A stretch of DNA of 63,683 nucleotides, counting the filler, from Dimargaris cristalligena (taxonomy: Eukaryota), in NCBI GenBank assembly GCA_003614675.1. It is 2 parts of 2 records of this genome, joined end to end, with 100 filler letters (N's around TTAATTAATTAA, not from the genome) between each part and the next. Parts side by side here need not be neighbours in the genome. Positions count along the whole stretch, not along the records: positions 1 to 31,990 come from ML002431.1; 1 more part is not named here. One strand, given 5' to 3'. The notes below the pieces were generated by a model that was given only the letters and a program-made list of their open reading frames with translations, had not been told where the DNA came from and did no database searches. Of this stretch, positions 637 to 57,646 are shown in pieces. Positions within the stretch are counted from its first letter, which is position 1. Each line of letters opens with the position of its first letter. Position numbers and translations under genes: made by a program.

Positions 637-772
637 GGAAGAGGTTCAACTTGGTTGTATAACGAAAAATCCGTTGGATGAGGCAAATAGTACTGGTTAA
701 AAATAAATATTCCACGGATTCTCACATACACGTATCATTTTTAACCTTATACAGCTGGTCCGAATTTCACCC
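637..772 (+). mobile_element. MITE copy 1 (136 bp, imperfect ~26-bp TIRs, 4-bp TSD ATAT)
   Basis: Left end GGAAGAGGTTCAACTTGGTTGTATAA; right end TTATACAGCTGGTCCGAATTTCACCC. Flanked by ATAT at 633-636 and 773-776. Clearly homologous to 29536-29672. Confidence 0.8.
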
Positions 773-3260: not shown

Positions 3261-6200
3261 ATTGGGAAATAGACCGGGACCTTGACCAGCTACCGCACAG
3301 AGGGAACGGGTGACTAACGACTCCCCTGCTGGAATGCTCGCCTAATTACCAGAGTTAAAATTATTTTTTCATTTATTATTATTATTATTATCAAATAGTT
3401 CAATTGTGTGCGGAAGATAGCCTCTATTTACCTTATCGTGTGTGCCCAAAGATTATTTATACTAGAAATTCAAAAAAAAATCGGGAGGTATTTTATGCAA
3501 ATAGGACCATTCGCTGTGATACCAACATAGTTTATTATTGGGTAAATGTATATCCAGTATAAATGAATTCGAATGCCTCAAATATCTTCAAGAATATATT
3601 GGGAAATTCGAAACTATACGAGTAACAATTTATCCGTAGTCAAAGAGTATGAACAAGATATTTATGGAGGCTTGGACTACTTCTATGAGTTTTTAGTTAA
3701 AAGAATTGGTTGGTCCAAACCATGTATAAACCCCTTAATTTAACCTTAACCATTCGGGTGCCGAAACTATCTCTATCCTTTACTATAATTGCTGGTTCAC
3801 CAAAAAGGAATGTAAATTCATTATCGTGGAGATGACATCCCTGCGGTCCACGCACTGAGCCGCTGATATAAGTGAAAATGATTATACATCCCCCTTTAAC
3901 TCCATGCCCGACTATATTTAGTGAGATATCACCAAGGCGGTGATACATGGATACCATCTACTAGAGCCGGTTAATGTTTTTCCCATGCGTGGCCCTTATC
4001 CGACCAAACCATGACATTGAAGTATTTTACAAAAAAAAACCAAGCAATAGCTGCGTCGAATACTTTTTGGTCGGGTACATAATGCATGCACCGGCAGACT
4101 CGTCCAAGGGCAATGTAATGAGTCATACGAACAGATGATACTGGTCTTGTAAACTGACTAAATGGGGATGATACATTATACTTGCGAATTGTCCCCGGCC
4201 ATGCCCAGTCCTTCCATTTTATATATTGCTGGGCTGATTTAACTCGAGCACATTATGAATAGAATTCTACGCCGGTTCTGTCACAGTGAGGTGTACCATT
4301 TGCCATAGCTATGTAGCAGTCCTTCATCATAATTATATTACATTCCACTGTGAAGAGGCCTACTCGTATATGTTGGATTTTCAGGCTAGGTGACTCGACG
4401 GCTTCTAGAATGCTGGGCTATTTTTTTCTAATAGAAATCCTTGCCCTAACCATATTCGTGCGGTGGTCATTTGGCAGTGCATGTGCAACTGCGTACTCGT
4501 TAATGCACGGTCACGCAGGAATGGAGTAAAGAAGCGATTCGGTCGGCAATCCCTCCGCCATCGGCTTTATTGGACCAATTGTAGGTACAAGCATCCAACA
4601 TTATGACCATGAGTCTTGGTGTGAATCAACCGATTGTTTCGTCAGAATAATATTTTACCGATGAACCACGGCCACCGCAGTTGAGGACGAGCAACATTGT
4701 ACGCTATATTACTATCCGATATGCAATGCCTTCGGCTGAGCCCAAATAAATGCTATATACATATTCATCTTCAATTTTTAAGATAAACATGCCATATTGT
4801 CACTGGCTGTTGTTTATGGGATTGCCCAGCTGCGCACTAAACAGATAGCCACCCGCTTATTAATGCCATTTATAAGCAGCCTAGTGTACGTATGGGCGTG
4901 ATGTCCCTCTACTGTCCTATTCTGGCACAGTCTATCAGAGTGATCGGCGCAAAGCTATTGAAGCGATCCTGTATCCCACAGTCGAGGACTGAATTCGCAA
5001 CTCAGGCCATCTAAATTCACATGCCAATTGTCATATTATTAGTGCCGGTTTAAGTGTATACTCCCCCCCCCCACTAGCCCGGGTAAGTATTTAGTTGTGA
5101 GGTTGGAGAGGATAAAACAAAAATATATTATATAAAAAGAGCGGAATAAAATTACAGGAGGGGGGATAGAAGGGTGTAAGTGGGTGATAAATTACAGTAA
5201 AAGGCTGAATTGGAACTGGGTTCGGTATAAATGGGTTGATAAATGGAATCGGAACCCTGATTCGGCAGGCACCCAAAACAGGCCATCATCGGTCTTCTCG
5301 TTAGTCTGCAGCATGTTAACGACAGACTATTTTTGGTCAAGGGAGTACATGAGCCACGCGTGGGCTAGTATTAGAATGTCATGGAAATGGGGTTTGGCTG
5401 TATTGAAGGGGGAGGGATATAGCCTCACCTGAAGGGGAATATTCATGAATAGAGCTAGAGAGGAGGGCTTTTAGCCATTTCTCTTGACCGCGCGAAGGTG
5501 TGCGTGTATGGATGTATGATTGTGGGTTGTGCACGTATATGGCTGTTGGTGATAGCGGTGGGGGAGAGGCGGCAAGACCGAAGGCGAGAAGCCCTAAATG
5601 GGGGGATATGCCAAGGAGGGACGTGAGGAAACTGGTGAGCAGAGGGGAGCTAACTAGCATGTGAGGATACTTTGGCTCTGGTGCTCTTTCTAGATGGGCT
5701 GATCTTGCTCGCAAATATTCGGGGCATCATTTAGTGAAGGATAGGAGGGATGGTTACACCGCGGTGGCCTGATTTATTTATTTTGGCGTAGTGGTGGTGG
5801 ACAGACGATCCACATGGGCTGACTATTACGGGCAGTTAATACTACTAATAATAATAATAATAGGGTATATGTGGTTCACTCTATAGGTATATTTCTAGGC
5901 ATATATAAATGTATATGGGTTGGAAAATGAGGGGGGAAAGGGTGAGAGATTCGCGCCGCCAGGGGGTTCTGGCAATGTCGGTTGACCCTCTGCCCCCCCC
6001 CCCTAATGCGGCATTATAACCCTCAAAAACCAGTTGCACAGACGACTATATTGAGGTGGGACACCCCCCACCGGCATATATGGGATACACCGCCCAACTG
6101 GCCAAATGAAGGGTGGTCACATGAGTTCAGTAGGGGGATTTTTTGTTCTAGTAGCCGACAATTTGGAGGCTCTGGAAAGAGTTGCAGGAAGTGGAATGCT

Positions 6201-8506
6201 AATCCTACTGGGGGTGTAGTCGGTAGGAAAGGATACAATAAGGTAAACTAATACAGAGCATGGGCCCCAGAATAGCTAGAGTTGTGCCAGTCAATTAAGG
6301 GAGGTCATTTCTTGGCTGTTGAAATGACAGTGTAGAATACCCCTAGTATCTTGGGCAGACCATTCCCCTCTCTGTCAGTCCAATCTGCCGACCTTTAGAT
6401 AGAGGCATTTTAAGTTTGACCAGAGTGCCCGATAATACTTATTAAGTGGAAGCCTCCCCCCTAATTTATGCCAACTGGTGTATTTATTGATATCAGTGGG
6501 GTGATAATCCCTTTGGCGTGACAGGAGGAATTAGCGAATGAAACTCGACCGGTTGCAGAAAATGAGTGGTTGGCTGTAGGTCTGGCGTATGCGTAAGCCA
6601 CACGGACTGTCACTTTTTATAATCCTTGCCCATTCAGCCAGGCCACATCATCGGAGGCATAACCCCTTATAATGAAGATCGAGTTATCAGTCAAATAGAG
6701 AGACTATTATGATGAATGATGGGATGCGAACTAGGTGTCCTATTCGGTAGATTCCAGGGAGGAGTATACGCTGAGAAGAGCGATATGGGGATTGGTAGGC
6801 CGGGATCTGCGAGCATTGCCACGCATTGTTATTTTTGACGGACGGAGGGTTGAGGAGAATGGATCGGGGCTTTTGCGCCGATTGGTGGGATTTTTCCGAA
6901 CTAGGCCGGGAAGAGCTCGATAAACATGGAGTGGCCCCACGGACTATCCCGGTGTTGTTCAGGGCCACCGTCAGCAAAAATAGGTTTGGTAACTAACTGA
7001 AACCATTGCTGTCGTATATGTATGTATCTATATGGATATGATATCTGCGACAGTGGGGTGGACTGGTAGCCGGTAAAGGAACGTGAATTGGCCGGGCGAT
7101 GGTTTACCGGGATTATTTACGTAAACCTTAAAGAGACCCAGCAACCCTCACAATAGTTCGGATGTTGTCATTCTTGTTTCCGTGTTCATTGGGTGATGTA
7201 TATAGTATGAGGGAGGGGGAGAGAGGGGGGGGTTCGATATCACCAATTTTTTAGGCCAGATGGTTACGTTATACAGTTAAAGAGACCCCAACCCCAAGAC
7301 TGGCAGAAGAACTCCCCCACCTGTTGATAGGGCAATTCTCGGAATACGGGCCGGGGAATATAGTTGAGGGTTAGAAGGGCAAGGGATTATTAGGGCTATA
7401 GTCTAATGAAAAGGGTCTCATGTGTGCAGTTGGAGCAGTGCGCGAAAGGCATGTATCATCATTGACCTTTGCCTTTTTACCCATTATATTCCTATTGCCG
7501 CGTAATCACATGCGGTTGGTGGAACCCGCCTTGATCAAGCGACAGGTGGTACGTATCAGGCCATGTCAGACTGCGCGGTCAATCATCTCCCTCTCTCCCA
7601 GCCCTACTCACCCGTTAGGCCGCCCTCCTTTCTCTCTTGTTTCTAACCCAAGCGCCGGCGGGACTCGCCCCTGGCAGGACCATTTATTACACACTCTACA
7701 CGAACCCCTCGGGTGTAGTGGTCATTTATGGCCCGGTTATGTTTCCCTTTGCTTTGTGTATCCCTGCCGTTTGGCCACACATCTTTTGGGGGGGGGGGGG
7801 GGGTTTCTGCCACTCGTATGTTATTTGGTTAAATTCAATGGCATGTAATTTGTGTTTGGCATATTTCGGATGGCGGATTGGGGCACAGCCACCCCCTCTA
7901 CTACTATTGGTTCAGGAAGCCCGGCGGGCGTAGTTCGTTGGTGGATCGGCGGTGGGTTGATATCGGCCTTACCCGAACCAGTCGGTGGTTGTCTGTATAA
8001 AGTTATAATAAAATGGGGTTTCTCTTCTCTCTAGTCGAAATACATCGAATTATAAAGATATTTCAGGGCCAAAAAAAGTGCAGGCAGGCGTAGTTCGACT
8101 ACTATGCTATTAACGCCACGGGTCCTTGCCAGGACTACTGACCGGCGTTGATGTGCACAGTTGGGCTAATTGCATAAATATAATTGGGAAGTTTCTCTCC
8201 CAAAACCCCATTGTTGTGATGCTTCACTATCACAATCCTTGTTTCTCACTCCTTTCTCTAACCATGTATCCAGCAGCACACTGCGTCTCCCCCTCTCTCT
8301 TTTATCCCTCCCTCGCCTCTCTTTCCCTCCCGTTTCGTCATCCCTGTTGGGCCAATCTCCGGCCGAATTCAACTCCGCTAACCGGTATATATAACTGCTG
8401 CCTGGCCCTGCACCCAAGTGATTAAGATCCCAACTGCTGTCTTGGCAATTCTCTCTTTTCCTCTCCCTTATGCTTCGCTAGCCCGCCTACTTTTTGACAC
8501 ATTCAC

Positions 8507-17397: not shown

Positions 17398-18323
17398 GAT
17401 TTCTTCTTTACAAAGTATCCAATCTGACCATAGGTACAGTCACCATACGTACTAGAATACTAACATTGGTCAACCAAATAATGTGATCCACTTAGTTATT
17501 GCCGGCTCTTATTGCTAGCAAATAAACTGACTGGATTTCTGGTCATTCTAAGCCATTGCTTATGGTACTCATCGGCTCCTTGTTATTTTCTTGTGGCAGT
17601 TGAATAGTAGGATTTTTTTTTGGATGATACATGTATATATTACCAGAACTGTGTTCATCAACCTACGAGTTTGGGGTCTAGTCTTTATATACCAATTCAA
17701 TTTCCCTGCCTGCAACCTTGCCCTATGGGATGCTTCCCCAAACAGAGCAGTGCAATGCAGCTCCTAACTCTTGGCCTTCCTTTTTGCAAAGGTAAGTAAA
17801 TCACACACCAGATTAAACAGGAAGTATGGTTTGACCCAACCATTGAGTAAAATTCATCTCAAACAAAATGTGAATGAGTGAATAAATAAAACATATACAG
17901 AGTTATTTAAAACATGGTTTTGTTGAAAAGTCATTGGATAGTATACTGCTTCCCCAGTAACAATTAGAATAAATCCATATACCCTGCTTAAACTAGGGAG
18001 AGACACATGTTATTGGAGGATGTGGAATGCTTTCCAGATTCAGGTTCACTATCAGTATACATCAGCTAACCCATTTCAGGGATAAACCACTCTAATTCCA
18101 CCTCAGAGCTTACTCAAATAGGGTTTCTGAGCATAGTCTTTACAGATTTAAGGCTTAGATTAAACAAGGAGTTATCACACATTATTTCCTAAATCTGCAC
18201 TAAGCTACTCTCCACTAGATTACCAACTTCTTACCTAATATATAGTATCTGTTATTATCACTAAAGGCATTATATTACCTGAAAATAAAAATCTACTCTT
18301 TGAATTACTTTATAATCTATTAC

Positions 18324-18887
18324 TATTAGCCCTTTTAATCTACCTTAATCTGGCCAGCTTAGACATCCAATTATATTAGGCCTTATAGTACTATATTAAC
18401 TTTCCTATAATCATATATAGCACTATGGCATTATCCCTTATTATATAACCCTTCCCCTTCTGGACTCCACTTTTTTACACTAATTACTCAAGTACTAATC
18501 TATAGACTCTTCTGGAAACCCATACCTATCCAGTTGGTCTATTTATCTATACCCTAGACTTAGTAGTATCCTCCCCTTGGGACCTCCCTCTGGAGCTATC
18601 CCCATATATAGATAACTGGGCCCCATTGGGACTAGTTAGATTCCTTAGCTTATTCTTACCCCTTAGTTTACCCCAATAAACTCTATATAGACTTACTCCC
18701 CCTTGTACTAACTAATAAGGGTGCCTGCTGCATGTCCCTTACATATACCTACTGTAGCCTTTATTAATTAGTTCTGTGCCCTGTACCTAATGCTAGTAGC
18801 CCACTTGGCTAAGCTTAAGCCCTGTCTATTGTTAGAAGCCTATCCTTAGGACACTTAACAGACTAAGAGTAATTAACCCAGGTTACA
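18324..18887 (-). mobile_element. Degenerate ~564-bp interspersed repeat, solo-LTR-like, copy A
   Basis: The reverse complement aligns end to end with 29118-29821 minus the MITE insertion. On the minus strand it begins TGTAACC and ends GGGCTAATA. No CpG; no TSD seen. Confidence 0.7.
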
Positions 18888-20029
18888 TAGAGCTAGTAGT
18901 GTAGGATTGCCGTGGCAGTCAGGGATATATCTAATACTGTACATAGAACTAGTCCAGCTAAAACACTGATTGCAAAACTACTGTAAGTTATTTGTAACAT
19001 AATTGCCTACCTCAGGCACACTAATTAGCATTCATGGGTAGTGTTACTATATCCTGGTAATTTGCATTGACTAACGATTAATATAGAACTCTCTCTTTCA
19101 TCCAAATATCCATTATCAAAATGGTTCACTGCCCAAGTACAATACTCGAGTCCGCTTGATAGATACCTATTAGACTGGGGATGTCCACCAACCGCAATTT
19201 GGTAGTAATTATTAGGGGGACATCAATATATAAAAGGGCAAATCTAGGCGCGGGAGTGCTTAAAAGAGGTGGGCGTATAAGGAGGTCTATGTAGACCTTA
19301 AATATAAGCACTTGGCGACAAGGGGGACCGAGTAAAAGTTATTCGATGAAAATTGGATAACAGGGCGACATTGCCCAAGACAAAATGTGGATTAGAATCA
19401 TCGGATACTGGACGGAGTTTCCGGGGAAGCAGTTGCTTGTGTCTCCCCTGGGTTCAGACCACTGCGAAATCATTTTCTTGAGTAATATATCACCAAGGCA
19501 TATGAACCAGTTGATAGATTGAGGCACTTAGTCTAATCAGTGCGATTCACACGCGTGGCAGCACACGCCTCCTTTTTCAGACAATTAATCAAGAAATTGG
19601 ATAATGGCATTCATATTCCCTCGTTCTGACCCCTTTTAATGCAATTGGAAAATGGCTTTTGGAAGTTAGCTACCTATTATTAATTCATAATGATAGACAA
19701 TTTGGAAATTATTGGAAAGACTGGGGAATAATAGTGGGGGGGGAGGGTATTTCCACATGAGGATAAATAAAGTCGTATAAGGGCGTCTCTTGTTTCCCCC
19801 TAAAAACCGTGGGTTAGGACACTCCATATACATCTGGGTTTTAATATGCCGCAACCCAGGGCTGGTTGAGTGTTCATTTATTTTATTTTTTGAAAAATTA
19901 CGGGAAAATGTCAAGTGACGTGTAAAAGGGGACTACAATCCCACGGAATGAGACCCGGTGATTTTCAGGGGATTTAGGGCAGTGGTAGGAAAGGTCACCT
20001 ACCTGGTCCCTCGCATAGACTGAGCGGGT

Positions 20030-21747
20030 TTAGAGAGTAGTTTCGGTGGGAGTTGATGCAGTAGTGGGTTTACCTTCCAGTTCCTCAATCAGCTCAGTGA
20101 GAATTTCTTGGGTTTCTTGAGGATTAATGATCCAACAGGTGCAGCAGGTTGTGCGGGTGGCAATGTCGTTACCGGTCGATAAGAACTAGGGGTTGGGAAT
20201 AGTGATGTTGGACAAGGGAAATGGCATGGTCACCCCGCAAAGCGCATGCATATTTATACGCACGAAGAACATTATTATTTCAACGGAACAAAAATATTTC
20301 GGTTAGCATTAGTGGACTAGTGGTTTAGATATTGTAGTGGGGGGGGGATATTTACACCCACGTTCATATCAAGGTTTAACCTGATTTTGGGCCGGAGGGT
20401 CCTTAAATTCTTCTAATGCCATCGCGACAATTCTTGTTCCCAACGTAGATTAATTGGTAGCATATTGCTATAACCCCTTGAACTTACCTGGTCTCCCACG
20501 TGAATAGTTTCCCGGGGCGAGAATCCCAAATGGTTTTGAAGGACCTGCACACCAATAAGCTTGTTTCCGACATCCACCCACACATCGCTACCGCCATTGA
20601 ACGCGCAAAAGGGGATTTTGCCCTGGTCGGGGCTGGAGGCCTTATTGTACTGGAGCAGGCACTGTTGGGTGGACAGGGCGCATTCGTCAAGTTGTTCGCG
20701 ACTGAGCGGCACCGAGGGGATGATGCCCACCGCCTTGGGTTTGCGCAGGACCTGGGCCTGTAACTTCATATCCGCAATACACTGCTTGAGGTTGAGTTCG
20801 GCGACATCCAGGAACCGCTGAATGTCCGCCTCGGTCCAGTCCAACAGGCGGGACTGGTACGTCTGCTCGGGGATATAGACCAGACGACTTTCGGGTGTAC
20901 ACTGGAACAGGTAGTTGCATTCGCCGCCCATGACGTAGAAGCGCCCCAGTTGGGTGGGGGTGAGGTCCGAGCGCGCGAAACACTGGAGAAGGCCGGAGAG
21001 GCGGGCTTCGTACTTGGCCACATCCGTGGTGTAACCAGCGGCCGTCACAACTGCCACCGTAATATCCCGCCGCAGCAGATGGATGAGCTGCTGGGCGATT
21101 TGGTTGTCCTCTTCGAAGGTCTGACCATCGGGGTACAGGGTCATATCCCCGTCGAACGTGATGAGACGCACCAGGGACCCGCTGGACCGCGCTTGGGCGG
21201 TGTTCAGAATGCGCCGGATATCGTTGAAACTGGGCGGAACGTACTTACGGGACGAGATGGCATACTTGGCGTTGGCGTAGAGGAACGCCTCCCGTAGCGG
21301 CAGGGGGGTAAAGAAGGTCCCTACGGTGGGCACCAGGCGCCGCAACCGGGAGTACTTCTCGAGCCCTTTTTCCTGCATCTCAATGTGCTCCGTGATGAGG
21401 GCCTCGACGTCGGCCATAATTTCGGCGTACCGAAGTTCGTTGGCGCGCATGGCGTCCGAATTGCGACGTAGGTTCAGGGGAAGGGCGGGGTCGGGGAGTT
21501 GGGGCAACTCGGACTGGGAGTAGGCACTGACATGGGTTTCGGCTAGCCAGGTGCAGGTGTCGGTGACGCAGGGCGAGACAGGCACGCTGCCCGGGGAGCG
21601 GGGGTACTGCTCCACGGGGAGGGCGCTCGACGTGGTAGGGGTGGCATGCAAGACGAAGGGCGTCAGCAGCATGCTCTTGATGAACTCAATGAGCGGGTCC
21701 CGCTTATGGGCCCGGAGGTGGTAGTTGATACGGTAAACCGAAGTCAT
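20030..21747 (-). CDS. ISN1: IMP-specific 5'-nucleotidase 1, ~471 aa, 2 exons (21747-20488, 20185-20030)
   Basis: Family motifs MTSVYRINYHLRAHKRD..IEFIK, FFTPLPL, PPSFNDIRRILNTAQ, TFDGDMTLY, GGECNYL, FCAFNGGSDVWVDVGNK. HVGDQ/FLSTGND is joined across a GTAAGT..CTAG intron. Confidence 0.95.
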
Positions 21748-22686
21748 GGTAGGTAAACCAGCGGAATGGGGGGAGTTTGTCAGTAATGAGGCAGTGGGTT
21801 GGATAAACTAAAACTCTGGTGAATACTTTTCAGAAGAGAACGTTATGAGGCAGAGGGAGGGGGATAGGCCGGGGTAGGGCTAACTAACCCGCAGGATAAA
21901 AAGAGGCCAGGTCGTACAGTCCGAAAGGGCAGGCTACACCAGATGACAGGGATAGGCAGCGCCACTGGCTAGTTCACAGTCACAAATCAGCGAATTGGAT
22001 TATACGAAGAGAGCGCCATTCCAAACCCCGACTCGCCTACGCATCACGTGGACATGGCCAGCAAGCCCCGTGGTTATAATCAGGGCGATCCCTGGAACTG
22101 ATGGGTAAGGAGCCACTACTGTGGAATTACCTAGTGCTAAAAATACCCCACCAGGTCATCCCTAAATAGAAGTGCCATCGATAGCATTATACGGATGCAC
22201 ACATGTGTGGGAGTGTGAGCAAGGGTGAAAGGGCAGCGCAATTGCAAACCAGGTCAATCCCCCCTCCCTTTTCTTCCACATCCCAGTCTATTTCGAACAC
22301 CATGAATGTGTAAATTAAGCAAGGAGAGTGCCAAATTTACAGTATTTGAGGACGACGGATTGGGTGACTGGGCTGTTCCCCGCTCATTAATAGTTTTCCC
22401 CCCTGTTAGGCACCCAATAGGCGGCTGGCCAGGTGGTTTCATCTACTCTCGCCCCTTCTGTCGTCGAAAGGTTTATCCGACCATCAGTGTAGCCCCACTC
22501 CGGAACGGTATAAAACTACTCAGTCTACCCCACCACACAGGCCATCTTAATAAATAACTGTGAACCCCGTCCCCTCCCCCCTCTGGTTTCTTCTGCACAT
22601 TATATTTTTTCCAATTACTTTCCGTCTGAAACCAACTTTCCGAGCTGTCCCCCACAAGCTTTGCTTCACTCTAGAGTCAAGCCACC

Positions 22687-25031: not shown

Positions 25032-27312
25032 ACTTACCCAATTGGGGCACAGGCCGGTGGGGGGAATCTAAACGGATATTATTTAGTATTGGAGTTAGGT
25101 ATCTGAGCTACAAGTAAACCCATAATAAAGCATTCTAGTATAATTTTTTTGGCGGTAGAATGGATGGCTTTGATACGATGCATTCGTTCATGAAAAGACC
25201 GGTGCACTGATGGCTGATCCTTATCATACCGATCATTAGTTATCAATCGAGGATAATGTGACGCAGCGACAGAGCTGCCCGTTGCCATCAACCTATTATT
25301 TAATAAACCTCGATCAGTAGAAGGTATGCCATGTAAAGCAAAATAGGGGCCAAAATGGTCTACATCAGATCCCCAATCCCACACTGTTTTATCTAGGAAA
25401 AAGGGGCTCTTGTATTTTGGCGGGGATTAATATAAAATATTGGGAGGGGGCTTTGAATTATGCAGCGGGGTAGCATCTGTATTTGGCTTACAGAGTAAAC
25501 ACTATACACTCACCCCTGAACACTAACTCACAGTGAACCTACATCGATTTCTGTTTCGCCTTAATTTTCCGCAATATATTCACCGTTGATTTTCAGCCGC
25601 CCAAATCGTGCTTCGTTTGGAGAAGGGCGTGGTCATTAAACAATCAATTGCGAAGGGTAAACGTAAAATAGGAAATGGCCATCATGACTTATATTGTTTC
25701 ATTAGGTCAATTTGGTGAAAAAACCTGGCTGCTCAGGGTGTTAAATAATACGGGTCTAATCGGGCCCTCTGTATAAGGGTTTAAATGACATGTGTATAGA
25801 AAAATAAGCTGGACGCTTATTTTCTACCTGTAATTTTTACCTTATCTAAGGGATTTTATGTAATACAGCACGTATGAAAATATAATGTATGCCGCCGGGG
25901 CTAATACACAATTCAAAATAAACAAGAGATATTTGTTAATAGCGCGTAACAATAAACCTCAATAACCAAATAAACGGAATACGAGCAATCCATTTATCGG
26001 GAATTGGCTATAGCATTGTAGCTAAATGGCGAACCGCCTTTTGGTACCGCCCCATGCCTTTGGGATAAGTACGTTATACAAAACTAGTAGAAATTATGGT
26101 CTGTGGACCATCGTGCTGGGTGTCTGGTACGTAACGAACCTCTAGGGCCAAGTAGTAATTGGCTGTTAAGGGGAGGCCGGGGAAAACTGGGCACGATGGG
26201 TGGAAGGGTTTCTTGTCTCCAATAAGGTTGGAAAAAAAACCAGTAAATACTAGATAATAAAGATACTCGGGAAACACTAAAACTCTGAAAAATACTTAAT
26301 GCAGGACCTCCTTTTCCTGAAGACGTAGATATAAAATAGCCTGTCTTCATTGAGCGACCGGGAAAGTTGACGTTATTTATACAGTACCAACAGGTGCAAT
26401 AATAATAGCAAATTATAGCAGGGTTGGCAACAGATATCGAAGACTGGGTATAGCGGATTCGGCTACAAATTGCCGTAACTTTAGGATTTGTTAAATGGAC
26501 GGAACTACAGGGGTTCTGGCGTCAAGTATAAGACGAATAAACGGGCACAAACCGGTATCGACCAGGTCCGGTTTACGTTTAATCTGAATGCTATTGTATT
26601 TCACGAATAGCAATAAATATCCCAAGCAGAAAACAGAACCGAAGTGGTCAATGCGATTCAATGCCTCCTTATGGGCAATGCTTTACGGCCTATTATATGT
26701 CAAGAACGATTGTGAAACCCAGATTTCACCAACTTCAATTTGACCAAGAATTTAGCTAAAGTATGGCCTTAATCATTTGATTTCTCGGGAAGAATTTTTG
26801 TTCCGTACCTCCGGTTAGTTCTACAAAGGAAGATGCTGAGAAGAGGGTCTGGATACCAATCGACACTACATCGAAAAAAATCAAGCAAATGAAATGTGTG
26901 AAACGGCTTACTAAGAACTCCTCTATGAGTTGGTTATTGTGCGTATATCGGCACTGTGTCTTCCTGATTGTTGGATGGGGTCAGCGGGCAGGTATTTTCC
27001 TCGATCTTCACACTCGGCGAGTAAACAATAGTAGCGTCCAGAGTGTGGTGGGGAAATATGCGAAATAAACGGTAATCTCGCAGTCGTAGAATATTTATGA
27101 TGCAGAGTGTCCAATCCCTCCAACCCACTCAACCTTTTAAACCGCCCCATCTGTTCGACACCTGTTGATGGTGCCACTTTAGGGCTGCGATGGCTTTTAA
27201 GGACCCTTTTTATAAACCATCCCGGCTCAGATATCTTCATACTTCAGCTATTTCACTTTGAATATTCGTTCATATCTACGTATTCGTTCTACTATATTGC
27301 CACTTTCTTTCT

Positions 27313-28713
27313 ATGGCCGAGCTACTCACCGGTCGAAGCACTACTACTTCGGTCGAGAATTCTGACAAACTACCCGTTTGCTTCTCACCGGGTTTGAACT
27401 TGCTAGTATGGCTTTTTCAACCTTCGCATGCCCTGGGCACCCAGCTCGTCCGTTATTTGCGTAACCAGGACCAGCTTCAACTGGCGGCGACATGTTGCCA
27501 CATCCGCTGCCTGGTAATCCCACATTATCGACTAAGTCTGAAGAAAGTGCCTGAGTTCATTTACCACGAAGCTGTAAACCAGTTCCTGTGCACTTACCGT
27601 CCGGCTATTCGATACCTTTTTATACAGCTCGGCGTCGATTTACAGCCCGACTGGTCCGACACTATCCGCCTGTTTCTCAGTCAAATAGACCACCTCGAAC
27701 ACATTGACTTTGGGGTCCAGAATCCCGTCGAGTGGCCCGCGGTAGTTCGCTGTTTAGACCATCTCCCCCCCTCCTCAGTCCAAAAATTATCCGTTTATTT
27801 TAGGGATACGTACACCGAGCCGCTGCAAACTTATCAAGACAATGAGAAGCAATACTTCTCAGAGGCCCTCTATGGGCGCCTAAGTCGAATCCGCTCGTTC
27901 AGTGTATCCGGAATTTTTACCGAGGAAAGTAGCACTGACCTCATTCTTCAGATGCTAGCGCCGTTCACCTCGCTCCAGACATTGCACATGTACGTCGGCA
28001 ATCCGGATGACCGGCTATGCCGGGAAATGGCGGCTCGTTATTCGCATTTAACCCGTTTGGCCCTACCCCACTCCCGGTGGCACTTGTCCCTTTTGTTGGG
28101 GCCTCGCCCACCCGTTTTCAATCGGCTTGTGTCGCTAGAATTTATGTGTGGCGATAATTTGGTCGGCATTCAGACCCTCAATGATATCGTGGCAGCTGAT
28201 TACCCCTGCTTGGTCAGTTTAATGATCGATTTCCCGTGGAGCACCGCCACAGCGTCCCCTCACTATCTTACTTCTCAACAATTTTTTTTTGGTCAACCCT
28301 GGCCTCAAGTTAAAAATCTAGACCTCATTGGGAAAGGGGTTACTCCACAGATAGACACTCTAATATCTTTAAATTTTTCTAACCTTGAATCATTGGCCTT
28401 ACATACTACGGCCGTCCCAATGCGTACAGCTGCGTTGTTCTTGTCTCAATTACCTCGCCTAAAATCATTTACTATAGTGGAATACAGTCCCATAGAGTTT
28501 AAAGAGCTGACCAAGCTAGAGTTCTATAATCATTCTGTCACCTACCTTCATATACATCCATCGTTATTCGCTTGGGACTCATGTGTAGCTCTTATTTCAA
28601 AGCTGCCGAGTATTCAGGAGCTGAGGGTTGGCTTGAAACATAGGAACCTAGTAGAACAATTGGTGGTTGAGTATCCCCGCATTCAATTTAGTGGCCCATT
28701 TAAGGGTAATTAG
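27313..28713 (+). CDS. F-box-like / leucine-rich-repeat (RNI-like) protein, 466 aa
   Basis: Intronless ORF. F-box-like segment (TQLVRYLRNQDQLQLAATC) followed by repeated LxxLxL units (FTSLQTLHM, HLTRLAL, NRLVSLEF, PCLVSLMI, SNLESLAL, PRLKSFTI, PSIQELRV). Confidence 0.7.
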   Translation: MAELLTGRSTTTSVENSDKLPVCFSPGLNLLVWLFQPSHALGTQLVRYLRNQDQLQLAATCCHIRCLVIPHYRLSLKKVPEFIYHEAVNQFLCTYRPAIRYLFIQLGVDLQPDWSDTIRLFLSQIDHLEHIDFGVQNPVEWPAVVRCLDHLPPSSVQKLSVYFRDTYTEPLQTYQDNEKQYFSEALYGRLSRIRSFSVSGIFTEESSTDLILQMLAPFTSLQTLHMYVGNPDDRLCREMAARYSHLTRLALPHSRWHLSLLLGPRPPVFNRLVSLEFMCGDNLVGIQTLNDIVAADYPCLVSLMIDFPWSTATASPHYLTSQQFFFGQPWPQVKNLDLIGKGVTPQIDTLISLNFSNLESLALHTTAVPMRTAALFLSQLPRLKSFTIVEYSPIEFKELTKLEFYNHSVTYLHIHPSLFAWDSCVALISKLPSIQELRVGLKHRNLVEQLVVEYPRIQFSGPFKGN

Positions 28714-29117
28714 AATCATCTAGATCAATAAAATCGTAATAGGAAGATTCAATTTAATGGCCATATTGTATTAATAAGACCTGGTGTGTTGGTATAGCTG
28801 CGGATATCATTATCTTGGGATAAAGTCAGTAGTCTTAGTGGGAGGACTAAATAAACCATTTACTGGTTAGGGCTTAATGAACAAGTCAGTATTCTAGTAG
28901 ATGGTCCGAGTGATGAATGGAAAATGCAGCTTATCATGGTATTATTGTGTATATATCTGAAATTGGTAGAATAATAATAGGCTAGTTAAAGAATCATTGC
29001 TAATTCTAGAGAAGATACTGGTATTATAAATAATTAAAGTGTGAAAAATATTAGAGAGTAAATGAAAAATACATGTGCTAAAAAAATAGGCATATATTTG
29101 GGTTTAACCATATTTTG

Positions 29118-29821
29118 TGTTGCCTGGGTTTACTACTCTTAGTCTATTAAAAGTCCCAAGGATAGGCTTCTACCAGCAGGTGGGGCTTAGGCTCAGCCAA
29201 GTGGGCTACCAGCATCAGGTATGGATGTGGTACTAACTAATAAAGGCTACAGTAGTATAGGTAAGGGACATACAGTAGACATACTTACTAGTTGGTATAA
29301 GGGGGAGTGAGTATATATATAATTTATTAGAGTAAATTAAGAGTGTAAGAATAAGCTAAGGAATCTAACTGGTCCCAATAGGGCCTAGTTATATATATAC
29401 AGAGATAACTCCAGAGGAAGATCCTAAGGAAAGGATACTACTAAGACTAAGATATAGATGAATAGGCCAACTGGATAGTTGTAGGTATCCAGAAGACTCT
29501 TTAGATCAGTACTTAAGTAATTAGTGCAAATAAGTGGGAGAGGTTCATTCAGGTTGTATAATGAAAAATCCATTGGATGAGGCTAATATTACTAGTTAAA
29601 GGCTATTCTCATATATATTAGTCCATATACATAGTATATGAAAACTTTATACAGCTGGTTTGAATTTTACCCAAGTGGAGTCTGGAAGGGGAAGGGTTAG
29701 ATAATAACAGATGATCCCATAGTACTGGGGGAGACTATGGGAAGGTTAATATGGTGCTATAAGGCCTAATATGATCAGACATTTAAGCCAGTTAGAATAA
29801 GGTAGATTAGATGGGCCAATA
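29118..29821 (+). mobile_element. Degenerate solo-LTR-like repeat, copy B, interrupted by a MITE
   Basis: Homologous to the reverse complement of 18324-18887; 563 bp after removing the MITE and one TSD. Starts TGTTGCC and ends GGCCAATA, compatible with mutated TGTTG..CAACA termini. Confidence 0.7.
29536..29672 (+). mobile_element. MITE copy 2 (137 bp, GGG..CCC termini, 4-bp TSD AAGT)
   Basis: Left end GGGAGAGGTTCATTCAGGTTGTATAA; right end TTATACAGCTGGTTTGAATTTTACCC. AAGT at 29532-29535 and 29673-29676. The paralogous repeat copy A has a single AAGT (empty site). Confidence 0.88.
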
Positions 29822-31990
29822 TGTGTAATGCCTAATTAGTGTAGCCATTACTTAATATATTATTCCCTAATATAAGAAAAGATTAGTTTTAAATAGTCTA
29901 TGCTGTGGTAATTTACCATTCATAATTTACTAAATGTGTACAAGGGCTGGTTTACTGTAGGTATAGTATCAGAATTACTCTTGGTCCATGCTTGTGCACT
30001 AGGTAGAGAGGACAATAATAGGGAGATAATAAGTTTATAGAAAATATATATATGTAAAAGAATAAGCAAGGTATAGCCTAAGGGGATATTTAAATGTGTG
30101 GGTATTACTAATGGGTTGTCCAGGTGGGAGTAGCAGAGGTACTGGTTAGAGGCTACTGGTATCTGAAGGATTCTAGGGAGAACATGTAAGCCTTTAGATC
30201 AATGGTTGGATGTTAAAAGTGGAGTTAGACAGTGTTGCCTAGGGAGAGGTAAGGTGCCCATTATGACACTAGGTATTATAATGCAGCTAGTGCCATGGCA
30301 CAATAAGGCCTAATCTAGGTAACATATGTAGTAAGGTCCTACAGCCTCATTAATTCAGGCTAGCAAGTGCACCCCTAGTAATTTATGGACTTGAATTCAT
30401 CTTCTTGTTAGACCGAATTTCCGCAGCTGGCCGGGTTTCACCTGTGGGGCTCTGGAAACAATTGGCCGAAAGCTATTAATAGTTTTTTTTTTTTTGTAAA
30501 TCCATAATTCTATGTTCACCTATTATTGCATCTGCGTAGTATATATTCCCAGACCAATGTCCCATATTCCGCTAGGTATTTCTCCGGCCTAGATAAATTG
30601 GTATTCTAATGTGCCTGTGGAAGATATACCTGTTTGTGAGAACAGGTCAGTAGTGCCCAATAAACAAGTGCTGCAAACTAATAGTCAAGTATGTTAATGG
30701 GGGCCGCTGGCTACAATTACTGGGAGGCTGGGCGTGAAGAGGCCATTTATTAAAGATGCCCTAGTAAGTAGCGAAGTGATGGGAGCCACATTGGTATTCA
30801 ACTGGTGCGTTTTGGGGCCAAAGGCACCTTAAAGGACGGTCCTGAGTAGTATAACATCCCAGTGAACTTATCAGTTCGACCATTCATTTAATTTTGATCT
30901 CACAGGTTTCTAACTTATTGTTATTTTTTCCCACTTACTTATTTTTATACGTGTTCTAATGTCTATCAAATGGTTGAAAGTGATGCTATTTGAAGGTAGG
31001 TGTATGGTGGGACTGGCCTTGTTTGCGCCCACTGCCACTATAATTCATTTTTTGGATGATCTATCCTTTTCACCAGTCATACTAATTAATTCAGAACGGC
31101 TGTCAATATATGGTCCACATGTAGGCGTATTATTAACTCAGAAGAAGTAAAAAACAAGGCCGGCGGAGGGGAGAAGCCTGGGTATCTCCGGCCATGGTTA
31201 GTGTGTGGCACGTGGTCTGAAATCCGTCAGTAAGGATGTCGAGATAATGAGTGGCGCGCCAATATACCGTGAACATTTTTTCCTTTTTTCCTATTTATGA
31301 CCCGCATGATTATTACCGCATTGCCTCGCATCTGCTTCCCAGAGCCATTCCCCGTCGCCTTCAAGGCACTGGCAATTGTGTATATATTGCATACCAATAT
31401 TTAGTTTTCGGGGACTTGGTGACCATGCGGCAAAAAGGGGGTGGTGGTGAAAATTTAAGCGCCAGCGTAGTTAATGCGGAGCTGGCGGAAGTCACGCCAT
31501 TGACATTGTCCGGCGGTTGAGGATGGGCAGCCTAGGCGAGCTGGGGAATAGAGTGGTTTTGTTAATGGCATGGCGGGACCCCACTCTGCAGCTACCCATT
31601 CATTAAGGGCCGCAGCTGGATTTGCCGAAATTGGCCTGGCTGAAAATGAAGAGGCGATTCTGACGACAGTCACTTAGGGAAAATATCATATGATAATGGT
31701 GTGAAGTGAGTGTCCACGAAGATCCTAGCTGTATGGAAAATGGCAGTAACATTAGATAAATGATAGAAGGAAGACAGTATTACAATACCTAAAATCGGGC
31801 CCCGCTGTTAAATGATGGGCCATAGCCCACACTCCCAGAAATGTATAGAATGAGAGAGTGGCGGGGCGTCTGACCTAATGTGGGGGACTATTGGGGTGTC
31901 ACCAGGGAAAATTCCACACAAGTTCCCATCTTGAGAATGGCGTTGTGGTTTAGGCACATTCAGCATATACCCACCAAGTAGGATATATGC

Positions 31991-32090
31991 NNNNNNNNNN
32001 NNNNNNNNNNNNNNNNNNNNNNNNNNNNNNNNNNTTAATTAATTAANNNNNNNNNNNNNNNNNNNNNNNNNNNNNNNNNNNNNNNNNNNN
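31991..32090. other. Artificial assembly spacer / contig junction
   Basis: 44 N + TTAATTAATTAA (stops in all six frames) + 44 N = exactly 100 nt. Confidence 0.95.
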
Positions 32091-43577: not shown

Positions 43578-44548
43578 TTCGTTCGCACTAATCCGAGTTG
43601 CTGAGTTGTACAACAAATCCCCTTCCGTATTGATGTAAAAAGGAGGGTGTGAATGTGGATGATTGCCTCCCCCGCACATTATTTAACCAGCTCTGCCCCT
43701 CCCATGCGTGGTCTTGTCTGATTTTTTAGTATCTGGGGGTCTATTAATATGTACACTGGGGTAAAAGTGCGGGTGGGGGAGAGAGAGGATGGTGCACTGT
43801 CTAGACATATTTTCCACTCATATATCCAATCCACCCTCATTGAATAACTCCTGGCTATTGGTTCATTTATTACTATTACTATCATCATTATTATTATTAC
43901 TACTACTATTCTTAATCCATGCATTTGAGGTACACATTGCTCATTTTTACCCTTATAAACGCAATGTTGATCGGCTTTTTTCTCATTAGTGTTTGTTTAT
44001 TCTGTGCAAATATACGTTGTGTTTCAGTTGCCTGGGATGATTTTTTACTTAAAGGGATTCAATACTTTCCAATAACCGGACTGCTTATCCATGCCATGGG
44101 GTTGCTCTAACGATTGATTAAAATGGACTAGAGCTCCATTATGGGTAGGTGGTATTTGCGGGGCTTGGGTGGCCCAGGTTCACAAACGAGATGGCTAGTC
44201 AACCAGCCCACAATGTATTTTATCTGGCAGGGTCGGCATCCATTTAGCAAATCTGTGATCAGGCGGATATCCAGCTGCACTGAAAAGGGTATGTACCTAA
44301 AATAACAGTTCAAACAAATGAGTTGAATGATCCTGTTCGTAATTAATTAATTATGTAACGGAACGATCAATGTGATCTACGCAAATGTGATGTGTTTTTT
44401 TTACCTGTAACAGTAATTGGTGTTGTCGTCTCAAAACACTATACTTACACAGCTGCTTTAGTATTACCTATCCACTCGGAATGGGTTTGGGATTTGACAA
44501 CATCCACTGTCCCTCACTCATTATTTTACATGCTAGAGGTATAGGTAT

Positions 44549-44579
44549 GGGTGAGGTTCCTTCAGGTTGTATGACAAAA
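44549..44579 (+). mobile_element. Isolated left terminus of the same MITE family
   Basis: GGGTGAGGTTCCTTCAGGTTGTAT matches the left end of copy 2 at 22 of 24 positions. No convincing right end. Confidence 0.55.
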
Positions 44580-45469
44580 CGCCTGTTTATTAAAACAATT
44601 ATTGCGGATAATAAATAACTTCCACTCTTTTGTATCAATCCACCAACTCAACACTACTACAGGAAACTCGACCGCACCTGTCATTGTATACGGGATTCCC
44701 ATATTGGCGATTTCCTCGCTTATTGTTTATGGCATGAGGGGGGGGGATTGCGGTTTGGTTGAACTAATAATTGACTCCAAGAACTCTCAACTCATCCCCC
44801 TAAATACCAGCATATACAAAGACTACCATACTTTAGATATACATAAATGATGCATTTCGTATCCTCGCCTTTATTCAATTGATCGGTATTTCGGCATCCT
44901 ACGGTACACTGTTCCCTAAATCTGGTGGACTGGTCGAGTGCCCATTACACCCCCGAGACAGACAGGCCCGGCCGATGATTTTAGAATGACCTTCTCAAAG
45001 TCCAAGGAGAACACTTTGAATAAATGGCGACAAGTGTCCACTAGTTGAAACCACAAAACTCTCGACCAACGGTACCCAGCGTTTACTCTAGACCGTGGTT
45101 CGTTGGTATGGCCTTCATGGTGTCATTGCATATATCAGTAATTGAGCAAAGGGACTAGTCAATTTTTACAGAAATTGGGACACCCTTTTCCATAATTCCC
45201 CCGCACCGCACTAGGGTCTGGAGTCTTACGCCAGGTTTGCGAAAGATAGCCACTTCCATATCTATAGCGAGGCCGCTGATCAGGCCAAGTTGTACAAAAA
45301 GAACCAAGTTTACTATCAAACCATTGGAAATCGGCATATTTGCAAAGTTAGATAATTGGGTAAAGGACAGAACTTCGTATAATAAAGTGAAAAGTGTAGG
45401 TGTGGAGGTGCTTTCACCTCAGGGAAAAGACCCGTAACGGCAGGGGTGGTATTCCGTTTATCGTTGGTT

Positions 45470-54000: not shown

Positions 54001-55059
54001 TTAAAGGGAACAAGCAGGTTTGTAACTTTAGTCGTGGGTTCCCGTGGTAAATGACGCAATACCACTTGGGGATGCGGTGCTACCTCGCCAGGACAATCCG
54101 TGCCTGCTAGAGTCCTTACCTGACCGAGGGAGAATTGCCGGTATTCACCGTCTAAGCTATACGTTCGGACGGTCCCGTCATTAAGAACGCACACGAGTTG
54201 CTCTTGGCTGTTCCAATCCATGGCCACAACGCGGAAGCCGTCGCACTTGGATGGGAAAGGGATGGTGGTAGAAGGGGAAGGACTGTCAATTAGAATAGAT
54301 TTGTATTCGGGGTGGTATATCCACCGACCTTGGCCAACATTTGCCTAGAAACAATGACAATGGACTGGTCGGTCTATTTTCGCTATTCACAAATAGGCGG
54401 AGTTTCAATGACTAGCGGCCACCTACCTCAATCTGCCCTAGGAGCTTTCCTGACGAGGAATATAGGTAAATGGACAAATCGGTGGTCTGTTGCTGGTTCG
54501 CAACCAATAGTTTTTTGTCGTCCCGGATGAGAGCTATAGTATAACAGAGTCGGGGCATAAGGTTGTTGCATAGTAAATCGACCGTACCAAAGGTAGTAGT
54601 AGGTAAAAGATGAGTGGTCAGGAAGGATTGCGGTTGAACGGAGGACAAGGGCTAGTGGGGTATGCCACCTTTCGGGTGACTGGGGAGTAGGGGGGACTTA
54701 ATACAGTACGGCTTACCTAAAGGGCCGCCAAAGGGGGCCGCAGCGATTTTGAACTTGTCGAGCTGAATATTCCGCCAGCACAGCTCGTACATGGTGTGCT
54801 TGCTAAGTGGGTTTGGGAGTTAGCAGTGTAGGTGGGGGTGGATTGCATTTTACGATGGGGTTAAAACCTGGATTAAGCGATGCCCCGTAGCCTGGACCGG
54901 CTCAATAAATAGGGCAAGCGGCCGAGCCCATTGGGAGGGCTCATTCGAGACAACAGCCCCTCATCCAAGGCTACTGTCCCTTTGAACTTACCGATAAAAC
55001 TTGTCCTGGAGAAGGAGCCAGTCATTGGTCGGATGTGGTAAGTGGCCGGTGGTTGCCAT
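51009..55059 (-). CDS. VPS16: Vacuolar protein sorting 16 (HOPS/CORVET subunit), ~835 aa, 9 exons (55059-54992, 54802-54717, 54533-54427, 54245-54120, 53912-53783, 53585-53458, 53285-52011, 51797-51289, 51087-51009)
   Basis: Motifs PTNDW..DKFYR, AAPFGGPLALIRD, SVSPNGK, QLVWCG, FSIGSTSPAAML, LLKAASFGK, EPRAADQVPLL, FKIPDKRFW, KKSPIGY. The GT-AG exons sum to 2508 nt in frame. Confidence 0.93.
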
Positions 55060-55442
55060 GGTGGAAATGCTGTGACGAATGGAATGGGAGAACTGAAAGG
55101 AACCGGTGCTGGTAGTACGGGACTGGGGCTTAAAATGAGAATTAGGAAATGGAAGCTGTTAGCAATAAAACCAGTATAAGGGGAGGAAAGACCACTGTCT
55201 AATGATTGACTAGTCGCTCGATATACATGTCCCATAACTGGTTAAGCTACCAGTTGGCTCTCTAACGCCATTCCTTATAAGTAAATCGAAGGAAAACGTG
55301 CATGGCCAAGTCCCCTTAAGCTCCTTAATGGCCCTAGCTGATCAACGACCACCAATGGGCGCTTTTTCCCCAAGGGGTGATGGGCAAACCAACATTAATT
55401 TAGCCGGGTGAAACCACGCAGTCCCACATGAAGGGAAGTCCC

Positions 55443-55470
55443 TCCTCTCTCTCTCTCTTTCTCTCTCTCT
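55443..55470. repeat. (CT)n microsatellite
   Basis: Imperfect CT run upstream of VPS16. Confidence 0.85.
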
Positions 55471-56662
55471 GGTGTATCGCACTTGGTCTGAAACGACAAT
55501 AATGACCTGAACCATACCCATGACTCCCTCCAAGTCCAGCGGAATACCCCGGCAAACTCGCTAAGTCGGCCTAATCCGGATTCGGGCAGTGGCCATCGCA
55601 GTAAAGAATTGGATGGTTTGTTTTGTCAGTATTATCAGAATACCGGATCAGTGTTTGGCTTAGAGCAAGTTTAAAGTCACTGCTGTATGGTTTTTAGGAT
55701 TAGGAAGCCATCTATGCTGACCAATTTACTACCCACTACTCATAACATGCCTAGTGGGGCTGCCATTGCACCGTACGTAGAGTGCATCGAATGGGCCAGC
55801 AGTCCCAATAAACTCAACAGCGCCAACAGGCACAGTGTGATATGCCTCCTATATATCCCAAGTCGGTTGAGTACCTTGATGAACTCCACCGCTGCGAGTA
55901 ATAGACCCCTGCACTAAATGGTACATCCCTCAATCTCTGCACCCGTTTGCAAAATAGAAACTATAAAGGTGTAAGTGTACTTTAGTGGAGACAGACCCGC
56001 CAAATGATAGATGCAGGTTGGTTCCCCCAACTCACGGGTGCTGTTTTCCCTACGGGAGGAAATTATCAACGGTGGGCTCCAAGAGCACCGCTTGGTTGGG
56101 GCTAGGCTCTGTGCCAGCTAAATGTTGGCAGGATAGCTGGGGCCATCCAAAAAGGGATATCGGAACCCTATAAATAGTAAGCATACCATCAAGAGCAGCG
56201 GCACCTTCCGCCGATAATTGTGAGTTGATTAGGGACTTCCTAAATAGCCAGCGGCAGGTCGGGTGAAGGACCAGGTAAATGAAGATTATTGGCTAATTGG
56301 ATATCCGTCGGGAATTACCGCACTTACTGACCAACCTGCCCAGCGCAGTTGGTCAACCTATTTCAGCAAAATCTATTAATGGACTGTGACCCTCGACCAA
56401 AAGACCCCGCCCAGAAAACAATCATTTAATAGGGAGGGGGCACCAGCCCCATTGGGCTGGCTAAGGGGTCCCCGTCTGTACCCCTCCCTAGCCGGGCCCC
56501 TAGGGTGGCTTACACCCGACCTATACAACCTGGGGCCCTTGAAGTCAGCAGGAGGGACTTTGGCGATGTATGCCTCTGCTTCGTCTACATTAACTATTGC
56601 CTAGATGGACGGCTCTTTCACCTCCGCAATCTAGGACAGCGGTAGTCTAGCAAGGGGTGGAC

Positions 56663-56669
56663 TATAAAA
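56663..56669 (+). promoter_or_regulatory. Putative TATA box of the DPBB/loosenin-like gene
   Basis: TATAAAA about 245 nt upstream of the ATG at 56911. Confidence 0.45.
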
Positions 56670-56910
56670 GGGAAGACATGGGAAGCCGCTTTAATAGCTC
56701 AGCCAGACTTATCTTAGATAGCTTATCCAACCATCGATTACTTTCCAGCCATTCATTATTAATATCCCCGACGATTGGATTTCAGTTGGTACTAGTACTG
56801 TTTGACCAATTTCGGACTGCCTAATCCCACTGCCTTTGTGGGTCTCCTAATCCCGGTTAATTAACTAATTCACTCATTCATATATCCTCACCAATTCCAC
56901 GTTTTTCCCC

Positions 56911-57646
56911 ATGCGATTTCTTGTGGCTGCCCTTACCTTGGGGGTATTAGTTGGTGCTATCCCCCTACCGGACCATGCTCTGGAACGGCGCCAAGTAGCT
57001 GCACCACCACCAGCCCCAACGGCGCAGCCCGTCCAACCAGGGGTGCAAATTACTGGCCAGGCAACTTTTGAGGTACCGGGCCCTAAGAAGATAGGGTCAT
57101 GCGGCTACGATGTCGAAGAACTTGCCTTCTCCGTCGCCATTGTAGGTTGCACCCGGACCCTCACAGAGGGATATATATAATCATTCTTTCAATTGAGATG
57201 TATCCACCACGGCTACGGTCAGGCCTGATAGTGGACACAGCCGATAAGTTGAGTTTGACCCAGGGGCTTAGGATACCCGGACATTCCCAGGTCTACAACC
57301 ATGGGTTAACCGGGGGAAACAGCAGAAACCGAGGGCTTGTTATATCCAGTGAACTAAACTAACCATCCGAACCCCTGGTGTAATGTTTGATTTATCGCTT
57401 TGGCCTATTCACCAACCACAGAACAAGGCGCAGATGGCAAACGGGCCCAACCCCAACGAGAACCCCAACTGCCGCAAGAGTATGACTGTGCAGTATAACA
57501 ACGTGTCCGTCATGGTCGAAATTACGGACACCTGCGAGAGCTGTCAGCCCGGCGAAATTGTACTGAGCCATTCGGCGGGCTCGCAGCTGGGCCAGGAATT
57601 CGTTAACAAGGGCCGCAACACAGTGGTATGGGTGATCAATTCCTAA
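56911..57646 (+). CDS. Secreted RlpA-like double-psi beta-barrel (expansin/loosenin-like) protein, ~151 aa, 2 exons (56911-57141, 57422-57646)
   Basis: Signal peptide MRFLVAALTLGVLVGA and a Kex2-like LERR site. Motifs GQATF..GSCG, VAI/NKAQM, NPNENPNC, VMVEITDTCESC and a terminal V.W. Phase-0 GTAGGT..ACAG intron. Confidence 0.85.

Follow-up and report, generated by a model that had tools for sequence, protein, structure and literature searches.

A stretch of DNA of 63,683 nucleotides (nt) from the fungus Dimargaris cristalligena (GenBank assembly GCA_003614675.1), hereafter the window, contains two islands from which the dinucleotide CpG is entirely absent. Each island holds one copy of an interspersed repeat of approximately 0.57 kb, referred to as repeat X, and the loss extends beyond it into a nested miniature inverted-repeat transposable element (MITE) and into adjoining unique DNA. 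The explanation we favour, with a probability of approximately 60%, is that these are islands of 5-methylcytosine (5mC) nucleated by the repeat, in which CpGs would have decayed by deamination and to which, in the repeat itself, a component turning CpA into TpA would have been added. That methylation is the cause, which enzymes took part and when they acted are matters we infer from the sequence.

The window holds 3159 CG dinucleotides, which corresponds to an observed/expected ratio (o/e) of 0.81. The longest gap between consecutive CG dinucleotides measures 1507 nt, from 28907 to 30414, such that the CpG-free span of 28908-30413 given in a preliminary description of this DNA is exact. The second longest, of 1245 nt from 17666 to 18911, is absent from that description, and the third measures just 201 nt and lies across the N linker between two contigs. 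The islands within the two long gaps are listed below, with expected CG numbers here and elsewhere calculated from base composition.

28908-30413, no strand: island 2; 1506 nt, GC 0.357, 0 CG against 43.6 expected, TpA/ApT 1.28.
17667-18910, no strand: island 1; 0 CG against 41.4 expected, TpA/ApT 1.35.

In 500 shuffles that permuted bases within blocks of 500 nt, the longest CpG-free run was 179 nt on average and 341 nt at most, and the probability of finding no CG in island 2 is approximately 4e-11 even when the local flank o/e of 0.55 is assumed. In a 1-kb sliding scan, CpG o/e falls below 0.3 only where the scan touches either island, the next lowest value being 0.48. The depletion is limited to repeats and their edges and the genes are spared (i.e., the pattern of a deamination island): the adjacent open reading frames (ORFs) present o/e values of 0.96 and 0.95, in keeping with the CpG-rich neighbouring genes of the preliminary description.

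Both X copies in the window sit in CpG-free islands, both islands contain an X copy, and no further copies were found in the 63.7 kb. The two copies are inverted relative to each other and are 82% identical over 567 aligned sites. The parts of the islands, other than the MITE, are as follows.

28908-29117, no strand: left part of island 2, single-copy; 0 CG against 2.7 expected, which alone is not significant.
29118-29534, plus strand: first part of repeat X in island 2; approximately 83% identity to 18887-18467 (minus strand); TpA o/e 1.64, TpG o/e 0.60.
29674-29829, plus strand: second part of repeat X in island 2; 78% identity to 18472-18319 (minus strand).
29830-30413, no strand: extension of island 2 on the 3' side of X (extension 2), single-copy; 0 CG against 18.7 expected; TpA o/e 1.41.
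18319-18887, minus strand: second copy of repeat X, without a MITE; nhmmer E 2e-200; TpA o/e 1.69, TpG o/e 0.53.
17667-18318, no strand: extension of island 1 on the 3' side of X (extension 1); 0 CG against 20.4 expected; CpG loss only.

Four public runs of this organism, three belonging to one study and the fourth to another, supplied contigs that were aligned to 28300-30800 at a likeness of at least 80%. Between 1154 and 2106 contig pieces per run stack on 29118-29821, and bins outside this interval show spanning-contig depth only. Because contig pieces pile up on 29118-29821 alone, X and the MITE are multi-copy families in this organism. The parts at 28908-29117 and 29830-30413 are single-copy at the 80% threshold in all four runs, yet CpG-free. 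The CpG-free unique DNA lies mainly 3' of X (584 and 652 nt), only 210 and 23 nt of it being 5' of the repeat, and the two extensions are unalike (z 1.8), the comparisons among extensions and left part yielding z values of 0.9-2.9 against shuffles.

No transfer RNA (tRNA), Rfam family or notable tandem array is present between 17000 and 31000, nothing there marks X as a short interspersed nuclear element or a satellite, and inspection of X by eye revealed no convincing long terminal repeat ends or target duplications. No Pfam remnants were found in the 10 longest of the islands' 23 stop-free stretches of at least 40 amino acids (aa), where two rows at chance level were obtained (E 0.16 and 0.4), and a 26-nt conserved stretch of X yielded 0 matches among public metagenome contigs. 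Some contigs of runs X1, X2 and X5 link 29772 back to 29127, which indicates that X copies stand head to tail or nested elsewhere in the genome. When read along X, the two islands are poor in C and rich in G, their unique parts included (skew of +0.14 to +0.49 per block), with A at least as frequent as T.

CpG was lost over a whole region and not from a single element, because X, the nested MITE and unrelated unique DNA all stand at 0 CG. Every class of island sequence is at zero where the expectation is 14.4 and 4.8 for the X cores of island 2, 19.1 for that of island 1 and 3.2 for the MITE; X, the MITE and the two unalike extensions have a combined expectation of more than 80.

The loss also occurred in place. 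At seven places the two X copies differ by an adjacent TG/CA double, and since such a double is the product expected from one ancestral CpG decaying separately in each copy, the decay was independent between them. Between the window and run X5, which present 2-3.5% differences at the island 2 locus, positions 28864-28865 read TG in the former and CA in the latter, and in 28300-28907 run X5 has TpG at four of the window's 12 CpGs (28413, 28433, 28735 and 28907) versus 13 differences at the remaining positions. CpG is therefore found converted to TpG or CpA independently in homologous copies. Both products are raised only in extension 1, whose values (CpG 0, TpG o/e 1.15, CpA 1.07 and TpA 0.97) are the plain product pattern of 5mC. 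Loose ends of X copies elsewhere hold CpGs: in the consensus of 45-54 contigs, CCGG stands at the site occupied by TTAG in island 2 and by CCAG in island 1, as read by eye at a contig agreement of just 0.62-0.66.

The MITE provides an internal comparison, given the window contains four copies of 79-139 nt of this element of approximately 137 nt, and many more are present in public contigs. The family is short, non-coding and multi-copy, with imperfect terminal inverted repeats of approximately 30 nt, 4-nt flanking repeats and an empty site.

636-773, plus strand: MITE m1, outside the islands; 5 CpG; flanks ATAT/ATAT.
29535-29673, plus strand: MITE m2, nested in X of island 2; 0 CpG; 73% identity to m1; flanks AAGT/AAGT.
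25752-25878, minus strand: MITE m3, outside the islands; 3 CpG; nhmmer E 8e-13.
44547-44625, plus strand: MITE m4, partial, outside the islands; 4 CpG across the aligned element; nhmmer E 0.0013.

Copy m2 is an insertion into X, of which the empty site is kept in the other X copy at 18467-18472. The preliminary description held that the MITE inside the CpG-free domain had been hit and an isolated copy spared, and this extends to all three outside copies, which have 3-5 CpGs versus 0 in m2. The six changes it listed are all present in the alignment of 636-773 with 29535-29673. Its polarisation of them, which m3 and the partial m4 (both absent from that description) now permit to be checked, stands for AACGA>AATGA, both changes of TCCGAA>TTTGAA and ACTGGTT>ACTAGTT, which are derived in m2; the others are ambiguous. 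With a third copy as outgroup, eight of the 17 changes proper to m2 are C>T or G>A (three at CpG and three at CpA) versus eight of 36 in two outside copies (Fisher p=0.11). By itself, the MITE evidence would hence lend weak backing to the earlier interpretation.

Positions 30414-30445, where island 2 ends abruptly on the right, are CpG-dense (four CpGs in 54 nt) and look by eye like the 3' end of a MITE (CAGCTGG..CCG..TTTCACC), possibly a younger fragment that sets the boundary.

A further signature is an excess of TpA in the repeat. The two ratios given last in each row are the indices for repeat-induced point mutation (RIP), read against published thresholds.

X cores: TpA o/e 1.58-1.69; TpG o/e 0.53-0.69; TpA/ApT 1.51-1.69; (CpA+TpG)/(ApC+GpT) 0.73-0.83.
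29830-30413, extension 2: TpA o/e 1.41; TpG o/e 0.91; TpA/ApT 1.37; (CpA+TpG)/(ApC+GpT) 0.99.
17667-18318, extension 1: TpA o/e 0.97; TpG o/e 1.15; TpA/ApT 1.03; (CpA+TpG)/(ApC+GpT) 1.25.

Over whole islands the indices are 1.28-1.35 and 1.00, compared with 0.92 and 1.12 for the window. The X-core values of TpA and TpG persist after (TA)n runs are removed, and the TpA layer is absent from extension 1. In comparison with other AT-rich DNA of the window, the trimers TCA, CAA and GCA stand at 0.27-0.49 in the X cores and TAG at 2.65 times, and CTAG is enriched 3.2-fold in the islands. The two X copies differ by 76 transitions and 26 transversions over the 567 aligned sites, a transition/transversion ratio (Ts/Tv) of 2.9. 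Of the 50 CpA/TpG sites, 31 face TpA in the opposite copy, the figure for cytosines of all remaining contexts being 30 of 181 (Fisher p=1e-9). To reach a TpA o/e of 1.6, the X family must at some point have been subject to a bias that generates TpA. As for the CpA>TpA change claimed in the preliminary description, TpA is up and TpG/CpA down in the repeat cores, but the change itself is not shown, given the two copies compared are unpolarised and 17667-18318 shows no TpA gain.

The direction of change was also read against run X5, with counts taken among the rows listed in the comparison of window and run, beyond which there are 216 further rows. In the single-copy parts of island 2, the window has T or A where run X5 has C or G at 13 of the listed positions and the reverse at two, with five transversions. 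In the left flank (28300-28907), the same directions number four and 12 among the listed rows, with one transversion, and the contrast with the island is significant (Fisher p=0.001). Such a contrast of direction by region resembles what C>T episodes occurring separately in two lineages would leave, although the numbers are small. None of the X5 alleles listed within island 2 creates a CpG, and the contexts of the 15 listed changes there are CpA in eight, CpT in four and CpC in three, whereas 33% of the at-risk cytosines stand in CpA. Divergence from run X5 is 2.2-3.5% in island 2 and 2.1-2.4% in the flanks.

Under the favoured explanation, an old copy of the abundant repeat X would have seeded each island, and the MITE would have been inserted into the X of island 2 later. 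The repeat would draw cytosine methylation, the mark would spread a few hundred bases into adjoining unique DNA, and methylated CpGs would deaminate to TpG/CpA until exhausted, with genes a few hundred bases off remaining unmethylated and keeping their CpGs. A second layer, strongest in repeat X, would turn CpA/TpG into TpA; its source may be non-CG methylation by an enzyme of the Dim-2/DNMT1 type or a RIP-like deaminating activity. Methylation islands of this kind would explain why the effect is regional, why genes and short isolated MITEs escape it, how the TG/CA pairs arose and why CpG alone was lost in extension 1, and the TpA layer of the X cores needs non-CG methylation or a CpA mutator beyond CG methylation.

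Several observations weigh against this explanation. Strict CG-maintenance methylation accounts neither for the TpA excess nor for the 3.2-fold CTAG enrichment, and TpG and CpA are not raised across the whole of island 2 (0.88 and 1.03). The X pair is unpolarised, and when its differences are read as A/T>G/C changes from a TpA-richer ancestor, the context bias vanishes (an estimated 20% versus 15% per site, approximately). The Ts/Tv of 2.9 between the copies is modest. The C-poor, G-rich skew of both islands stays unexplained, a simple one-strand deamination bias being a poor fit. Finally, contig-based copy number is confined to the parts of island 2, which bears on the extension at 17667-18318, and the sample of the genome is 63.7 kb only.

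The TpA layer also leads to the reading that a RIP-like mutator operates outside Dikarya, one which would recognise long-enough duplications, deaminate their cytosines in bursts, above all at CpG and CpA, and leak into unique flanks, any methylation being secondary. The islands alone are positive on both RIP indices (composite approximately +1 in the X cores versus -0.2 in the window), CpA/TpG sites differ 3.7 times as often as other cytosines between the X copies, and CpG dyads are changed on both strands (CCGG to TTAG, with CTAG at 3.2-fold), all of which such a mutator would produce; so would separate lineage episodes produce the flip in transition direction against run X5, from 13:2 in the island to 4:12 in the left flank among the listed rows. 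The multi-copy X of approximately 570 nt is affected and three of three outside MITEs of approximately 137 nt are spared, a small sample which other causes fit as well. Classical RIP, a premeiotic process that requires RID and/or DIM-2, however yields almost only transitions, whereas Ts/Tv is just 2.9 here and the changes proper to m2 are C>T or G>A in eight of 17 cases. Contrary to a leaking mutator that prefers CpA, 17667-18318 lost all its CpG without CpA loss or TpA gain, and the single-copy differences from run X5 within the island are not clearly CpA-biased (eight of 15 among the listed rows, with 33% at risk). Divergence of island 2 from run X5 is about equal to that of the flanks, and the host lies outside Pezizomycotina, the demonstrated range of RIP. 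A RIP-index signal has been reported in the zoopagomycete Zoophthora radicans (PMC11105155), whereas a k-mer screen across the kingdom detected signatures of this kind in Ascomycota alone (10.1101/2025.01.10.632494). A repeat-triggered C-to-T mutator that erases CpG, prefers CpA, acts in episodes differing between lineages and leaks into unique DNA is hence considered unlikely in this zoopagomycete. Were it real, a RIP-type defence, perhaps through an ancestral enzyme of the DNMT1/Dim-2 type, would be older than Dikarya. As for the region-targeted, cytosine-mutating defence system of the preliminary description, the region-targeted loss of cytosines holds, whereas an agent of RIP type rather than 5mC deamination is not shown, and "defence system" exceeds the data.

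The remaining alternatives fare worse. The composition might have been inherited, with X, the MITE copy and the flanks arriving CpG-poor, from CpG-less masters or as foreign DNA, and no local process at work. Both X copies are CpG-free and TpA-rich, such that the signature may partly predate insertion, and the extensions could be old repeat relics that are now unique. Yet X, the MITE and two unalike extensions would all have to arrive at 0 CG against a combined expectation above 80, while sister MITEs retain 3-5 CpGs and other X copies keep theirs (the loose ends read by eye); moreover, the TG/CA doubles imply that CpGs were still there when the X copies split, and run X5 shows ongoing loss of CpGs at the island edge. 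Inherited composition is thus very improbable. Chance, low GC, or an artefact of assembly or amplification is scarcely credible: the AT-richness of the islands (GC 0.36-0.37) does lower the CpG expectation, but 41-44 CG are still expected per island, none of the 500 shuffles reached 350 nt, and CpG o/e is 0.65-0.91 in the window's other AT-rich non-coding stretches. Three runs provide exact contigs all across 28300-30800, and the run from the second study has the locus with 2-3.5% differences. Editing of retroelement complementary DNA by an APOBEC-type enzyme was rejected, given it would leave single-copy flanks untouched and is at odds with a skew in which C is scarce and A is no rarer than T.

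The genes around the islands are ordinary housekeeping genes. The ORF at 20413-21807 (minus strand) encodes an IMP 5'-nucleotidase (Pfam ISN1), whose best match is 91% identical and comes from Dimargaris cristalligena; the next matches, at 69-70%, come from Dispira, Tieghemiomyces and Dimargaris verticillata, which are other Kickxellomycotina. The host suggested earlier, an early-diverging fungus, is accordingly a zoopagomycete (Kickxellomycotina, Dimargaritales) by protein matches, and these are not from Pezizomycotina, where the observation would have been ordinary. The two X copies, 10.2 kb apart and inverted, bracket ISN1, an amidohydrolase gene and further ORFs. A 483-aa ORF at 27262-28713 (plus strand) ends 195 nt before island 2; it has no Pfam match and is leucine-rich-repeat-like by eye. 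Run X5 differs from it at nine sites in its last 370 nt, six of them at codon positions 1 or 2 and two being CpG>TpG. Elsewhere in the window, intermediate CpG o/e values of 0.48-0.64, without TpA excess, occur at 5001-6500 and 55001-58500, and 31991-32090 is N44-TTAATTAATTAA-N44, an artificial all-frame stop linker joining two contigs.

We know of no Dim-2 gene in Dimargaris. The literature search returned nothing on cytosine methylation, DNMTs or RIP in Dimargaris, nor on these subjects for Kickxellomycotina under that name, although the supplementary tables of surveys may list the species. The methylation account agrees with two reports: in Linderina pennispora, of the same subphylum, 5mC is placed nearly only in regions rich in repeats (PMC11258239), and Kickxellales species with CDCA7F are implied to have DNMT1 as well (10.1101/2023.01.30.526367). 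A review attributes little 5mC overall to early-diverging fungi (PMC13297926). Given repeats make up 2-6% of the genome in Kickxellomycotina (PMC9866270), a mark restricted to repeats would be scarce overall, which fits a low total of 5mC.

Repeat-targeted methylation or mutation of cytosines is already known in fungi, and the islands are another instance of it. If 5mC decay is all that happened, they are the ordinary, expected footprint of the repeat methylation already reported for the relative Linderina. A RIP-like defence outside Dikarya is contested, with an index scan for it (PMC11105155) and a k-mer screen confined to Ascomycota in its positives (10.1101/2025.01.10.632494). To this the locus contributes a compact, well-controlled case in a third lineage, combining a repeat present in many copies, a younger insertion nested in it, flanks of unique DNA and another haplotype or strain that has diverged, and these features together separate CpG-specific decay from CpA-directed change.

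In comparison with known systems, the islands resemble the repeat-restricted CG methylation of fungi (Linderina, Phycomyces and the transposable elements of Basidiomycota; PMC11258239, PMC13297926) in that repeats and their edges are hit and genes are spared, that CpG is the fully depleted dinucleotide, and that its TpG/CpA products are found in one flank. Unlike those systems, Dimargaris is known from the mutational footprint and not from the mark, the erasure is total (0 of approximately 85 expected), and the X cores combine abundant TpA with scarce TpG, a pattern not predicted by CG-only methylation. With the RIP of Neurospora crassa and other Pezizomycotina the islands share AT-shifted repeats, TpA excess and CpA/TpG deficit in the X cores, positive RIP indices, effects on adjacent unique DNA and, on a small sample, the escape of short repeats; they differ from it in the zoopagomycete host, in the wiping out of CpG and not of CpA, in a Ts/Tv of 2.9 and in one flank without a CpA effect.

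The Dim2-dependent process of Zymoseptoria tritici, reported as a mitotic CA>TA mutation in methylated repeats (PMC8016269), i.e., C>T at CpA in 5mC-marked repeats with no need of meiosis, would yield the TpA layer of the X cores. CG sites in Z. tritici, however, are reported to be methylated yet not mutated at high rates (PMC8016269), whereas CpG is the most thoroughly lost context in the Dimargaris islands. Zoophthora radicans (Entomophthorales), of the same phylum in the broad sense, provides the same kind of index evidence, with a RIP-index signal over 24.2% of its genome, and its authors voice the same caveats (PMC11105155). That study is a genome-wide index scan of a huge, repeat-rich genome, whereas Dimargaris presents two small islands in a compact one; beyond such a scan, it adds copy alignments, a nested-insertion control and differences between runs.

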